Positions 10,852 through 20,472 of a DNA stretch of 64,000 nt are shown piece after piece. The DNA lies in the IMG/VR virus record IMGVR_UViG_3300028603_000033; one strand, written 5' to 3'. A model generated the notes under the pieces. The model did no database searches. It was not told the origin of the DNA and worked only from the letters and a program-made list of their open reading frames with translations. How positions within the stretch are numbered: the first letter of the stretch is position 1; each line of letters starts with the position of its first letter. The position numbers and the translations under genes are program-made. The DNA comes from an uncultured virus (IMG/VR IMGVR_UViG_3300028603_000033) (taxonomy: Duplodnaviria > Heunggongvirae > Uroviricota > Caudoviricetes).

Positions 10852-11574
10852 TTAAATAATTATTTGGGGTATTTTTTTGACGGATAATTTCTTTTCTTCC
10901 ACTAAATCCTTTAAGGCTTGAACATCTTCTTCAGATATTTCAACATCATTCATTAGATTATCTTCTTCACCAAAGATATCTCCTTTGGAATTAATGTATA
11001 GTTTTGCCATTTCAAGACGTTGTTCGGGGGTTCCAAAGATTTCAATTATAGCAGGACAATCATCTTTAGGAAAGAATGTATCTTTTCCCTTATGATATGT
11101 TTGAATAATACCTTTAAATAGGTTATCTATTTCTCCTCTAAATTCAGGATTTGTATCTCGCTGTTCATCAGGAACTATTTCAATAGGATAGGCATCTAAA
11201 ATAGGAATAAAAAATATAATATCATATACACTTACAATTTTCTTAAACTTCGCAATTGCTTGTTCAATATATAAGTCGTCAACATCACCCTTTTTCTTAG
11301 CATTAAGCCAAATACTATATACTAAATTGTCAAGAGGACCACGATCATAAATTACATACTTTTCGTTTTTAGTTTCTTCAATCTGATTATATAGGATTTC
11401 TTGAATAGCTTTTTGACCAACAAGATCACCATCACGATTCAATTTAATATCAGATGCCTTTGCTGCCTGTCTATAAGAACGTTTTGGAGCAATATACATC
11501 GGCCATTGCTTTAAAAAATCATTGATAAATGTTGTCTTACCTACACAACTCGAACCACATACAGCTATTTTCAT
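10852..11574 (-). CDS. P-loop nucleotide/nucleoside kinase (AAA_28/dNMP-kinase-like)
   Basis: KIAVCGSSCVGKTT Walker A; IYDRGPLDNLVYS; YDIIFFIP. Confidence 0.75.
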   Translation of the reverse strand: MKIAVCGSSCVGKTTFINDFLKQWPMYIAPKRSYRQAAKASDIKLNRDGDLVGQKAIQEILYNQIEETKNEKYVIYDRGPLDNLVYSIWLNAKKKGDVDDLYIEQAIAKFKKIVSVYDIIFFIPILDAYPIEIVPDEQRDTNPEFRGEIDNLFKGIIQTYHKGKDTFFPKDDCPAIIEIFGTPEQRLEMAKLYINSKGDIFGEEDNLMNDVEISEEDVQALKDLVEEKKLSVKKIPQIII

Positions 11575-11575
11575 A

Positions 11576-12005
11576 TTAATCCTCTTCTTTCAAAAACCTA
11601 ATTGCATCTTCAATGCTCTCTACTTTATGAGCATACGTTAAACAACCCAATGACCAACCTGGTATATTTTCAGGTTCTACACCATCAATCATATAGATTA
11701 TCTTTTTATTAAGATAAGCAGCAACTGTTAGTTCACCCCAAGTACCACTACCTTTACCCGTTGTCTTATCAATCTTAATAAAGAAATGACTACATCTCAT
11801 TACATCTTGAATGTCAGGAATAATAAAATTATCATAAATCCATTTCTTAAACGCAAATTCATCTACTTTTCCTAAAGGACAAAATTGTGTTGAAGGATTC
11901 ATTACTTGATATAATCCAAATAATTCCTTTTCCATTTGATTACGCCAACTTGATGGATCCTTACTGTGTTCTATACTGCCGCTAAAGATACACCGATTTG
12001 TTCAT
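11576..12005 (-). CDS. Nucleoside 2-deoxyribosyltransferase-like protein; needs a +1 frameshift at CTT-TAG (11987-11982)
   Basis: GAAAGGA RBS and ATG 12005 give MNKSVYL then TAG. The +1 frame continues SGSIEHSKDPSSWRNQMEKEL...MNP...DIQDVMRC...GSGTWGELTVA. The joined VYLSG..WR..GT..E pattern is typical of NDT-like folds. Confidence 0.7.
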
Positions 12006-12029
12006 AAACATCCTTTCAATAATCTATAT

Positions 12030-12908
12030 TTATTCTGCCCATTTTCTTAGTAGTTTTATATTATGTTCATATGCAGCACGCTGCCAACCATCACATTTCA
12101 TATCAAAATCTAAGAACTTTTTAACTTTCACTATTGTTCCATAATCTTCATTAAATCGAACACATGCTTGTGCTGCTTGCCAAGGCGCTGCACTATCGCA
12201 ACTTCTAATATGTTTTAATTGACTAGGTTTTAAGCATTGATTCAATAGTTTTAATTCATAAGGATTATACAATCCCAATAAATGAATTGTCTTTTTGTTT
12301 CTTGCTAGTGTTTTGAATTTAACATAATTCTGAAAGAAATATAATCTAGATAAGGTATAGTTGTAACAATTATCTTCCAAAGACTCTGTTAACTTTTCAA
12401 TATTAGGAATTGATTTTAACATCTCATCTGTCATATCAAATATTTGTTGCATCAGTGCCGGAATTAAATTTCTATAGCCGACACCAATAACATTAATACG
12501 CTTATCACTTACAAATGCTTCATAGCACTTCAAATACTCTTCTATTGTATTCCCCTGAGGAACTGCCATGACACTAAAATTTCCTGCAATATCCTTTTCA
12601 TAAAATTCATTTAAGAAATTAAAGGTTTCATTCATTGTAGTTTCAGCATCATGATACTTATCTGGTGCAATAAGTTCATTAGCCTTAACACTAGTTGCCA
12701 AGTCTATTAATTCTTGTCCCTTTAGCATAAACCCTTCGTTTGCAGAATTATCACATAGTACATATGAATCGGGGTTGTTTGTTCTAAGATTATTGTAAAA
12801 ATCTCTATAAATAGGATTTTTTAATAAATGACCTAATACCATATAGATATTAGAATACTTATATGATTCCTCTAAATGGGGAATCGGTGTAATTATAGCT
12901 AGTTTCAT
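12030..12908 (-). CDS. TGT-fold protein, candidate DpdA-like DNA transglycosylase
   Basis: LCDNSANE, LIAPD, MAVPQG, IHLLGL and IRSCDSAAP match the ordered TGT motifs; lies inside the que operon; no C-terminal Cys-Zn site seen. Confidence 0.65.
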   Translation of the reverse strand: MKLAIITPIPHLEESYKYSNIYMVLGHLLKNPIYRDFYNNLRTNNPDSYVLCDNSANEGFMLKGQELIDLATSVKANELIAPDKYHDAETTMNETFNFLNEFYEKDIAGNFSVMAVPQGNTIEEYLKCYEAFVSDKRINVIGVGYRNLIPALMQQIFDMTDEMLKSIPNIEKLTESLEDNCYNYTLSRLYFFQNYVKFKTLARNKKTIHLLGLYNPYELKLLNQCLKPSQLKHIRSCDSAAPWQAAQACVRFNEDYGTIVKVKKFLDFDMKCDGWQRAAYEHNIKLLRKWAE

Positions 12909-12936: not shown

Positions 12937-13599
12937 TTAATCACGGTTTGTATAAAATAATTCTTGTTGAATACGGTCATATGGAATACCCTTATCAGAT
13001 AGATATTTTGATGTATCCGTAATCATTCCTTCAATACCACATAGATAATATGTAATATCATCTGCAATAGGTAGTTGGTCTAATAAATCTGTTATTCTAC
13101 CTTTATGAATACCAAAATGTTTATCTTCTCTTGAAACCGCAAATTTTATATTGTAATTGGATTTTAACCAAACACGTTCATACAAATCTGCTCGTGTCCT
13201 TGCACCATATAATATCATTTCAGGTTTATGTTCATATGTTCGTAGCGCAGAGAAAAACGGAGATATACCTACACCTGTTGCAATATAACAATATTTCTTT
13301 GCTATTCCTGGCTTAAAATAATTGAATACCTCACCAACCTCAATCGTACTACCATAATGATGTTTTGAAATGCGTTGAGAGGATTTCCCATCTGTAAATT
13401 TACGAATAAGGAGTTTTATTATTTCTCTATCTTTAGTAGGTGAAGAGCATATACTATAACTCTTTCCATAGATAGATACACAGGTACCAGGTTCATAATC
13501 AATTCTGTTACGGGATATATCTAATTCAAAACATTCTGGAGAATATTCTATATTACTTATAACCTTATGTTTGCTCGAAACAGTACGCGGTTTAACCAT
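12937..13599 (-). CDS. Ferredoxin/flavodoxin-NADP+ reductase-like oxidoreductase
   Basis: SYSICSSP, GKSS, YIATGVGISPF, LYGART, YYLCG...I, ELF at the C-terminus. Confidence 0.85.
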   Translation of the reverse strand: MVKPRTVSSKHKVISNIEYSPECFELDISRNRIDYEPGTCVSIYGKSYSICSSPTKDREIIKLLIRKFTDGKSSQRISKHHYGSTIEVGEVFNYFKPGIAKKYCYIATGVGISPFFSALRTYEHKPEMILYGARTRADLYERVWLKSNYNIKFAVSREDKHFGIHKGRITDLLDQLPIADDITYYLCGIEGMITDTSKYLSDKGIPYDRIQQELFYTNRD

Positions 13600-15374
13600 T
13601 AAACACCAGTTAACTTATTGAAACAAAGAATATGTAATCTTGAGCACATACGCCAATGATAACGCATTGCCATTTCCCATGTGAATTTTGTTCTCTCGGC
13701 TAAGTCTGCAACATTATCACATCCCGGCATTAGTATAATTCTATTTTGCTCAATAGCATTGGAACCAATAAAATCTTCTTTTATTTCATCAATGTCCCAT
13801 TCTTCTCCAATGACAAACTTAAACCAATGATTATTATGTGACTTAATTTGTACTAGAGCGTCTTTATTAATACGCATACTTTCTGACATACCTGAATTAG
13901 ATAGCTTAGGTGAACAATTAATTTGCTGAATATGTCTTGTATAGAACTCTGAAGGAACAACAATTGTTCCATTCGTTTCTATTTCACTAAATATTCTTGA
14001 TTGGGGATATTTTTCCTTCATATAATCTAGAAATTCCATAATACCTGTTACACATCGTGGAATTGTAGGTTCACCACCTGTCCATACTATATGTGTAGTA
14101 CCATTTAAAATAGAATCTAATTCACCAAATTCTATCAACTTCTTTTCAATTTCTTCATTAGTATATGTAGTTCCATTTTTCCAAACAGTTTCACTATCGC
14201 ACCACCAAGTTGCTTTACCCTCTTTCATTAGAGAGCCACTCGGTCCACCACAATTATGTGTAACTAAACCATCCACAATGAATGTATGATGAGGATAACA
14301 AGTTAAATCATAACATTTTAGCTTGTTTGCATTATAACGTTTAACATCTGTAACCTTAATACCATTAAGTGCGTCTAATTCATATTTTATAAGATTATTA
14401 ATATTTTCTTTGTCGTCAAAATCTGCGAAGACAATATCATATCCAGCATCATTAACTATTTTCTTTCTATTTTCTTTCCATTTATCATCTCTATTAGCGT
14501 ATCTACCCTTACTATATAATACTTCAACCAATCTATTTGAACCTTCAATAATGAAATCAGGGTATATATGTTTTTTTGTATTCTTTATTGGAATAGCTAA
14601 ATCAAAATTACCAATATATTTTACAGGTAGACCCATTTTTTTACACAATGAGTGGAATTTATATTCTGTCATTGATGCATAGCCCTTATATCCTTTCGAA
14701 TTATGAGCACCTTGTGATTTTTTTACAATGACTGGATCAAACATCGGATTATTATTTTTCATCCTATTTGACGTATTTTTTATAAAATTATCATATATAC
14801 CTTGTTCTTTGAGAATTGTATTTATTGATTTTAATTTATTTTGAGAGAATAAATCTTTTCTTGTTTTTGAGATTTTTTTTCCTATTTCTTTATAATTAAC
14901 ATTTTCTAATCTTTTATTAACAGTCTCCCTGTTGTTCATTGGATTTTTATCGCCTTTCTTAATATATGATAAAAAATCCTTGTAGTTAAAATGCATTATT
15001 TCTTGATCTTTTAACGACCCTGCTGAAATCCAACCATTGTTTGTTAAAAAGGGGTGTTCATGAGAAGTGTATATTGATGATTTATCCTGCATTTTTATTT
15101 CAACGTGATTATCAATATCATATTCAGTAACAATTTTAACCACCGTTTCTGTTAATTTATTATTTTCATCTACTGATAAAACAATATCACCAGCTTTAAT
15201 TTCATTGATTTTTTTCATTCCAGTGGGCGTCCAAACCTTTGGTATTTTTCTACCTGGTTTAACACCAATAGACATTAAATTACAACCTTGTAATCGTATA
15301 AACACTGAAGGTACTCCTGTTGAGATACCTTCCCCCTGAATTGAATAAAAGATTTCGCTTACATTTAAACTCAT
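13599..15374 (-). CDS. queE: 7-carboxy-7-deazaguanine synthase (radical SAM), intein-containing
   Basis: EIFYSIQGEG...VFIRLQGCNLM | intein | CGG...WWCDS, VWTGGEP, EIETNGT, CSPKLSNSG, RLHI. Confidence 0.92.
   Translation of the reverse strand: MSLNVSEIFYSIQGEGISTGVPSVFIRLQGCNLMSIGVKPGRKIPKVWTPTGMKKINEIKAGDIVLSVDENNKLTETVVKIVTEYDIDNHVEIKMQDKSSIYTSHEHPFLTNNGWISAGSLKDQEIMHFNYKDFLSYIKKGDKNPMNNRETVNKRLENVNYKEIGKKISKTRKDLFSQNKLKSINTILKEQGIYDNFIKNTSNRMKNNNPMFDPVIVKKSQGAHNSKGYKGYASMTEYKFHSLCKKMGLPVKYIGNFDLAIPIKNTKKHIYPDFIIEGSNRLVEVLYSKGRYANRDDKWKENRKKIVNDAGYDIVFADFDDKENINNLIKYELDALNGIKVTDVKRYNANKLKCYDLTCYPHHTFIVDGLVTHNCGGPSGSLMKEGKATWWCDSETVWKNGTTYTNEEIEKKLIEFGELDSILNGTTHIVWTGGEPTIPRCVTGIMEFLDYMKEKYPQSRIFSEIETNGTIVVPSEFYTRHIQQINCSPKLSNSGMSESMRINKDALVQIKSHNNHWFKFVIGEEWDIDEIKEDFIGSNAIEQNRIILMPGCDNVADLAERTKFTWEMAMRYHWRMCSRLHILCFNKLTGV
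14253..15272 (-). mobile_element. Intein (340 aa) in QueE, Ser1...His-Asn, +1 Cys
   Basis: Starts SIGVKPG...KVWTPTGMKKINEIKAGDIVLS; block B TSHEHPFLTNNGW; ends CYDLTCYPHHTFIVDGLVTHN/C. Internal YPDFIIEGSNRLVEV nuclease-like motif. Confidence 0.88.
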
Positions 15375-20037: not shown

Positions 20038-20472
20038 TTAAATATTTTCCTTACTCTTTTTGGGTATTTTACCAATTCTTAAATTAATTATACCATTATA
20101 ATAGTTTTCATTTATTAAAACATCGTGGTCAAATTGATATTTTGCTTCATAATAAGCTAATTCCCATTTATTAATACAAAGACGAATTATCTTAAAACTG
20201 AAATTATCCATACCATATCTGACAATGTCGTCATTTAATTCATTACTACTACTGGTATATTCTTTCCAATCTGTCTCTTCAATGAAATGTCGCTTATTTT
20301 TCTTACCCTTTAATGGTTTTAATTTTTTAACATGGAGCATTTGTTTTTTACCTACATATTTTTTTCCGGTTACAATGTTTTCTATACAATATATAAATCC
20401 ATATGTATCAGTTGGAATCTCACCATCATATTTCCAATGCCCAAAATCTGCATGTACGTTTATTTTTTCCAT
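20038..20472 (-). CDS. GIY-YIG (Seg-like) nuclease-domain protein
   Basis: YGFIYCIENIVTGKKYVGKK...DWKEYTSS...YYE...YYN. Confidence 0.75.
   Translation of the reverse strand: MEKINVHADFGHWKYDGEIPTDTYGFIYCIENIVTGKKYVGKKQMLHVKKLKPLKGKKNKRHFIEETDWKEYTSSSNELNDDIVRYGMDNFSFKIIRLCINKWELAYYEAKYQFDHDVLINENYYNGIINLRIGKIPKKSKENI

Follow-up and report, generated by a model that had tools for sequence, protein, structure and literature searches.

In the stretch of viral DNA analysed here (64,000 nt; the window), a gene whose product is predicted to have the fold of nucleoside 2'-deoxyribosyltransferases (NDT) is split at codons 7-8 by one extra T. The insertion is real and heritable. Since two sister contigs (L001 and L002) differ only in a block that holds both the insertion and a homing endonuclease gene (HEG), the insertion moves in the co-conversion tract of that HEG. 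The explanation that we tentatively favour is that the extra base is a HEG-borne indel at a CUU_UAG_C shifty stop, and that it would be compensated by +1 slippage of the ribosome. The elements of the locus are the following.

12030..12908, minus strand: upstream 292-aa gene; its last ~20 codons are in the block that moves with the HEG
12002..12032, minus strand: 31 nt that agree at 29 positions with the HEG 3' end of L002 and L016 and end in the HEG TGA
12011..12017, minus strand: SD-like GAAAGGA, 5 nt 5' of ATG 12005
11982..12005, minus strand: zero-frame mini-ORF ATG AAC AAA TCG GTG TAT CTT TAG, encoding MNKSVYL and then a stop
11991..11994, minus strand: candidate internal SD-like GGTG, 3 nt 5' of CTT
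11981..11987, minus strand: shifty stop CTT-T-AG-C; intact alleles have one T fewer in the run 11984-11986
11576..11983, minus strand: +1-frame body of the NDT-like gene, 135 codons and TAA, S8 to D142 of the joined protein
11933..11935, minus strand: first start codon of the +1 frame (M24), chosen by gene callers, which gives a 119-aa short form
10852..11574, minus strand: downstream 240-aa P-loop kinase-like gene (AAA_28; PHROG 'thymidylate kinase')

The mini-ORF starts with ATG 12005-12003 and ends with TAG 11984-11982, which is followed by C 11981; on the minus strand the context of the stop is GGTG-TAT-CTT-TAG-C. The duplex of GAAAGGA with the anti-SD is -6.2 kcal/mol, calculated with the canonical motif, which may not be that of the host. 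In HEG-bearing relatives the same bases are C-terminal codons of the HEG. The +1 frame begins after TGA 12004-12002, reads SGSIEHSKDPSSWRNQ and continues to TAA 11578-11576; from that TGA onward it contains no ATG, GTG or TTG upstream of ATG 11935. If CTT-T is taken as one step, the result is a 142-aa joined protein (P0001) with the junction peptide SVYLSGSIEHSK. The split reading frame reported in the first-pass annotation, MNKSVYL and then TAG with the full protein restored in the +1 frame, is exactly what is found. By itself the CTTTAGC heptamer is not beyond chance: the window has 7 copies where 5.66 are expected. Its place at codons 7-8 of a conserved gene and its recurrence elsewhere are beyond chance. 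Two other ways of reading through the site were considered and rejected. Recoding of TAG as a sense codon does not fit with TAG ending 5 of the 66 ORFs of the window, and the zero frame meets TAA six codons later. Transcriptional slippage is known from runs far longer than three T's, and three is all that the run has.

We take the joined reading to be the family protein because its N-terminal columns are conserved and because the predicted fold matches NDT. Ten of its 11 relatives are 141-146 aa long and share the N-terminus M-(N/K)-K-x-x-Y-(L/A)-S-G-(S/A)-I-E; the 11th (P0006) is a 121-aa form beginning at M24. In an alignment of 14 intact relatives Y6, S8, G9, I11, E12, D16, W20, R21 and N22 are invariant, and 9 of the 37 invariant columns lie within the first 23 residues. 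The N-terminus of the joined protein matches that of the intact relatives, and the claim of a family-typical N-terminus was correct. An AlphaFold model was made of P0002, an intact relative with 97% identity. The model (pLDDT 86, pTM 0.82) has strand beta-1 at residues 3-8 and helix 1 at residues 20-28. It has 93 PDB matches at E <= 0.001, of which the top ones (TM 0.69-0.71) are nucleoside 2'-deoxyribosyltransferases, the best being 7o62_B with E 5.3e-6. By this model the gene encodes an NDT-fold protein, and a product starting from M24 would miss strand beta-1, a core strand, and the nine invariant N-terminal residues, and with them the motif that is most conserved in the family.

Further points of likeness to the NDT/DNPH1 (Rcl) family, besides the predicted fold, are the N-terminal Y-L-S-G strand-loop and an invariant Glu (E91) in a G-E-L-T motif. 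The sequence matches differ from those expected of a family member in staying below the curated Pfam cut-offs. PF15891 matches residues 3-40 of the joined protein, across the junction, with E 0.003 (18.3 bits, below the cut-off of 30), and PF05014 matches with E 0.078 (13.6 bits, below 28.8); a PHROG search with the NDT-like protein gave no match. One relative (P0007) carries a precomputed PF05014 hit. Two members of cluster 4 in the census described below, P0027 and P0028, are 149-aa NDT-like variants with a six-residue insertion after the conserved INP motif; they were seen in 5 and 2 contigs, respectively.

A third T in a short run could be spurious, and an error of sequencing or assembly was one of the explanations offered when the site was first noticed. 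The window was compared with Logan contigs from four public runs (X2, X3, X4 and X6). Independently assembled contigs of three of them (X2, X3 and X4, which come from three other studies) bridge 11974-12014 without any indel, and those of X3 and X4 bridge 12033 too. They have three T's, not two, at 11984-11987, the place singled out for a check in the first-pass annotation. Run X6 has no cover over 11523-12014. The extra T is also present in L016, a 99%-identical contig that reads TAC where the window has TAT, and in four contigs, identical to one another, that we call the L002 type (L002, L003, L009 and L010). We found no support for an error, and its probability is practically nil. The one-base insertion is real and heritable.

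In L002 a 263-aa ORF (L002:2206-2997) lies between the upstream gene and the NDT-like gene. It is a LAGLIDADG HEG, directly 5' of the NDT-like gene, with matches to PF14528 (E 7.6e-14, 52.2 bits against a cut-off of 22.5), to PF00961 in 2 stretches (E 2.8e-7, 31.8 bits against 23.1) and to PHROG 4645 'endonuclease' (E 4.7e-20). Its TGA overlaps the ATG of the NDT gene. The last 70 codons of the HEG, its 3' end, are also present at the end of L016. A search of viral_contigs with the HEG found only the two L002-type contigs.

L001 is a HEG-free sister of L002 in which the NDT-like gene is intact. On the left they share 99.95% identity over 2108 nt, and on the right 100% over 1982 nt. Across the NDT and kinase genes the identity is 99.05%, with the differences crowded in the first ~57 nt. 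All that sets L002 apart from L001 is an 883-nt block. In it the upstream gene ends in the window-type form, the HEG follows, and the NDT gene begins with ~19 codons that carry six synonymous differences from L001 as well as the extra T. This pattern is the signature of HEG homing with co-conversion of the flanks. The upstream gene occurs in two allelic forms that are very different over the C-terminal ~20 residues (L001:2942-3010 and window 12030-12090). The TAA of the L001 form lies 8 nt into the NDT-like gene (ATGAATAA), and a 24-nt spacer separates the two genes in the window form.

Comparison of L016 with L002 adds a second observation. In the body of the HEG they differ at 17 of 159 aligned positions. 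Over the next 89 positions, which cover the final 56 nt of the HEG and 37 nt from the start of the NDT gene, the TAC/TAT change is the sole difference (Fisher p 0.004). This low divergence could be due either to constraint or to a second recombination event.

There is no HEG in the window, only the 31 nt that match its 3' end. The intact HEG-free alleles (L001, L007) have no such spacer; therefore, either the window has lost a HEG and the 31 nt would be its remnant, or the window represents the first insertion site and the 31 nt would be the original place of HEG insertion. One run may hold a further allele: a 754-nt contig of X6 (record 10) matches 12034-12600 and then continues with 183 letters unlike the window. 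The break (12033/12034) is exactly at the HEG junction of L002 and L016, and this contig may carry the HEG or some other allele. It can also be noted that the HEG ORF and the +1-frame body of the NDT gene (L002:3064-3426) share a frame, with a single TGA (L002:2995-2997, window 12004-12002) between them. If that TGA were read through, the HEG and the NDT body would be fused, and coincidence (1 in 3) may explain the shared frame.

How widespread is the insertion? Among 13 inspected loci the extra T is found in five (L002, L003, L009, L010 and L016), while the gene is in frame in eight (L001, L006, L007, L008, L011, L012, L013 and L014). L015, with a marginal 15-residue match (E 7e-4), was left out of all counts. 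The close relatives are therefore not all intact. The four L002-type contigs differ in length and are identical over 6417 nt. Their cassette is letter for letter that of the window; identity to the window is ~77% for the DNA of the NDT and kinase-like genes and 74% for the NDT protein. L016 is a 4-kb contig, 99.08% identical to window 12063-8579. Because it has TAC for TAT, the shift site has persisted through a synonymous change. The contig (4060 nt, with a coverage of about 2) was assigned to a Smithellaceae MAG, probably by misbinning of phage DNA, so it gives no evidence of the host. Searches of viral_contigs by family alignment and by cassette pattern yielded no contigs beyond the same three.

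A census of alleles at the protein level comprised 24 listed forms in five clusters at 90% identity. Seven are short forms of 119-121 aa that start exactly at M24 (34 contig sightings), 16 are full-length forms (63 contig sightings) and one is a 39-aa C-terminal piece (P0021, cluster 3), the sightings of which were not counted. The short forms, which occur in four of the five clusters, are what gene callers make of a split gene; the DNA was seen for three of the seven (window, L016 and L002 type), and for the other four we infer the same cause. All seven continue to the normal stop. In clusters 2 and 4 the short form is identical to the full-length form over the shared 120 aa, so the transfer is recent. 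No cluster of decayed fragments (30-77 aa) was found, which is a weak test made on cluster representatives only.

In the gene body X4 has two differences from the window, both at third codon positions; they are the two synonymous changes that L016 has as well. The HEG-free frameshifted allele is present in three further studies. In L016 the gene body has 2 non-synonymous and 2 synonymous changes. One of them, L122V, is in a column that is invariant in alignments A1 (12 sequences) and A4 (14 intact relatives), neither of which includes L016. These changes would fit relaxed selection. The first-pass annotation suggested looking for conservation of the cassette against diverging flanks. An identical cassette is indeed shared by diverged phages, but recent co-conversion with the HEG explains this identity, and it is therefore no sign of selection on the site. 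With 5 of 13 loci carrying it and the majority in frame, conservation of the site does not go beyond descent and recombination.

What is the shift potential of the site? According to a review (PMC5009743), CUU_U followed by UAG was the best +1 shift site in laboratory tests. The same review confirms the CUU_U shift codon, the stop and the 3' C of the prfB site, and it names a 5' SD element as a major stimulator and weak E-site pairing as favouring the shift (PMC5009743). The window has the CUU_U, the adjacent stop and the 3' C (11987-11981, minus strand), with UAG rather than UGA as the stop. TAG is the rarest stop in the window, used by 5 of 66 ORFs, with TAG-C in 1 of those. Codons around the site are rare for their amino acids: TCG (3.7% of Ser) and GTG (7.5% of Val), of which GGTG is the product, AGC (7.7%) and GGC (9.2%); GC3 is 21% over 65 ORFs. 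SD-like motifs precede 43 of the 66 ORFs, and the host therefore probably uses SD pairing. The GGTG duplex is -5.6 kcal/mol, compared with -1.3 at the same place in L001 and -3.5 in L007, again with the canonical anti-SD, which may not be that of the host; the pairing is only 4 bp. Folding of 131 nt around the site gave no notable structure that might act as a stimulator (z -0.09). It should be added that the intact L007 allele, GTG TAC CTT AGT, turns into the cassette upon addition of one T. Since the family conserves V-Y-L-S, insertion of a T here looks prfB-like without any design.

We can now describe what the favoured explanation, a HEG-borne indel compensated by slippage, would involve. 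The HEG would invade a HEG-free phage, and repair would copy the HEG together with both flanks. It is observed that the HEG is transferred together with ~20 codons at the end of the upstream gene and ~19 codons at the start of the NDT gene, insertion included. The insertion would create CUU_UAG_C beside a rare stop in a weak context. If some ribosomes pause at UAG, peptidyl-tRNA-Leu may slip from CUU to UUU, AGC would enter the A site, and a fraction of the ribosomes would make the full 142-aa enzyme. The indel would then be tolerated as a 'corrective' or 'saviour' one and would not serve as a regulatory sensor. It may also shield HEG-bearing DNA from its own nuclease, as the T4 mobA/gene 60 case suggests by analogy. 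We consider it unlikely that the single base does everything at once, spoiling the nuclease target and making the shifty stop while a +1 shift keeps the NDT-like gene working.

It is the T4 precedent that makes slippage and shielding credible as steps. The cassette of the T4 mobA homing endonuclease and gene 60's 50-nt translational bypass was reportedly described by Bonocora et al. in 2011. Two sources state that mobA and the gene 60 bypass form one mobile cassette, that the 50-nt bypass insert blocks self-cleavage (Manning and Atkins) and that some phages lost the nuclease and kept the bypass (bioRxiv 10.1101/2022.08.31.505936; PMC5009743). Here, too, a free-standing HEG adjoins a conserved phage gene (in L002, and by its 3' end in L016), and a non-coding insertion moves with it as one block between divergent flanks. 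Expression would likewise need recoding at a stop near the start of the downstream piece, and in some lineages the nuclease may have been lost and the putative recoding element kept. The differences are that the insert is 1 nt instead of 50 nt, that a putative +1 slip takes the place of a hop, that the nuclease is of the LAGLIDADG type, and that the target is an NDT-like gene and not a topoisomerase gene. A literature search, among the matches listed and by their titles and the starts of their abstracts, yielded no phage cassette of +1 frameshift and HEG besides that of T4, and it found no paper with the phrase 'CUU UAG'.

A second comparison is with prfB. The likeness to prfB proposed in the first-pass annotation holds for the anatomy: the CUU_U shift codon preceded by a Tyr codon, a stop in the A site followed by C, a candidate purine-rich element 3 nt upstream that may pair with the anti-SD (here GGUG only), and a short zero-frame ORF with the functional protein in the +1 frame. 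It does not hold for feedback or for conservation. The stop is UAG, which is read by RF1, whereas prfB has the RF2 stop UGA; an NDT-like product gives no release-factor feedback; and the site is found only in HEG-linked alleles, not family-wide. Another relevant class is that of 'corrective' or 'saviour-indel' frameshifting, for which the review lists mitochondrial and endosymbiont indels and indels in the G-run of herpesvirus TK (PMC5009743). As in that class, we propose that a null-type indel is partly compensated by low-level frameshifting and kept for another advantage. Unlike in that class, the advantage here (a ride with the HEG, or immunity) is hypothetical, and the site is a phage shifty stop and not a homopolymer run.

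Another explanation is almost as probable. If the gene is dispensable, the extra T may simply inactivate it, with no useful full-length protein being made, and the commonness of the allele in diverged phages would be owed only to the co-conversion tract of an actively homing LAGLIDADG HEG. The recent null mutation considered in the first-pass annotation stays in this form, recast as a HEG-driven null allele, and accounts for the distribution just as well. The insertion is linked to the HEG and its transfer is very recent (L001 and L002 are 99.95-100% identical outside the block), and in clusters 2 and 4, where short and intact forms are identical over the shared 120 aa, there has been no time for decay. 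The predominance of intact alleles (16 of 24 forms, 63 of 97 contig sightings against 34 short), the L016 change in a family-invariant column, the weakness of the SD-like element and the lack of an RNA structure are further points in its favour. On the other side, the position of the indel coincides exactly with the best-known +1 shift site of bacteria, next to a weak and rare stop, which this explanation does not predict; by a rough estimate, only ~1 in 10 homopolymer indels in the tract would do so. Nor does it predict that strains from three further studies have the frameshifted allele without the HEG and yet keep an intact gene body. The full ORF is kept in 7 of 7 short forms, and fragments of 30-77 aa form no cluster, weak as that test is.

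The role first suggested for the site, a programmed frameshift that senses RF1 and ties the output of the enzyme to release-factor status, is very unlikely. Its appeal lies in the anatomy, which is that of prfB with UAG replacing UGA, and in the rarity of the codons at the site. Nevertheless, near-identical sister phages carry a plain in-frame gene, in-frame alleles are the majority (16 of 24 forms, 8 of 13 loci), the distribution tracks the HEG and not phylogeny, and there is no conservation beyond co-conversion. Because the product is an NDT-fold enzyme and not a release factor, there is no feedback loop either. Could the mini-ORF be irrelevant and the functional product be the 119-aa protein from the internal ATG 11935 (M24)? 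Gene callers choose this ORF, and termination at the TAG 46 nt upstream could permit re-initiation. Yet the 23 missing residues hold 9 of the 37 invariant columns and the first core beta-strand, and there is no strong SD-like motif in the 20 nt before 11935 (judged by eye; AAGT and TGGC have no match in a loose set of 4-mers). We regard a functional M24 form as extremely unlikely.

To our knowledge, well-documented +1 frameshift sites of bacteria and phages other than prfB are very few, and for a long time no recoding signal but that of the T4 gene 60 cassette was known to be linked to a homing endonuclease. If compensation by slippage is true, the present locus would be the second natural case, after T4 mobA/gene 60, of a recoding signal serving selfish DNA. 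Outside release-factor genes, it would also be the first natural +1 site of the prfB type with UAG as its stop that we know of in bacteria or phages. A one-base version would show how cheaply conserved genes can be invaded, as any run of the Y-L-S type can become a shifty stop, and it would supply a small and easily tested natural +1 site that depends on UAG. If the insertion is only a null allele, it is a clean example of a deleterious frameshift mutation spread by HEG co-conversion. In either case, of the 97 contig sightings of this gene family 34 carry the annotation of a truncated ORF of 119-121 aa, and such annotations may hide recoded genes or HEG-driven loss.

The window (G+C 32.5%) matched nothing in a collection of phage records at either the DNA or the protein level. 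The kinase-like gene begins 1 nt past the NDT stop. The other neighbours include genes for QueD/PTPS (E 6.5e-25), for a QueE-like protein with an intein, for a thioredoxin and for a ferredoxin-reductase-like protein. The label of a deazaguanine operon is partly supported by the QueD/PTPS and QueE-like genes; the 292-aa upstream gene, presumed in the first-pass annotation to be DpdA, has no match to any named family. ARAGORN places a tRNA-Ser(GCT) at 13894-13987 (plus strand), inside QueE on the opposite strand. Since Rfam has 0 matches in the window, we treat this call of a phage tRNA or suppressor as spurious. A genuine tRNA reading AGC would have mattered, AGC being the first codon of the +1 frame.

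Other mobile elements are present. The QueE-like radical-SAM gene (13599-15374, minus strand) is 591 aa long owing to its intein, which is recognised by PT-HINT (E 1.4e-9) and Intein_splicing matches at residues ~47-207; the QueE-like PHROG match covers residues 391-590. With it, the gene cluster holds a second selfish element. At 20038-20472 (minus strand) there is a 144-aa SegE-like GIY-YIG endonuclease (PF19835, E 8.1e-31) of the free-standing homing-endonuclease type.
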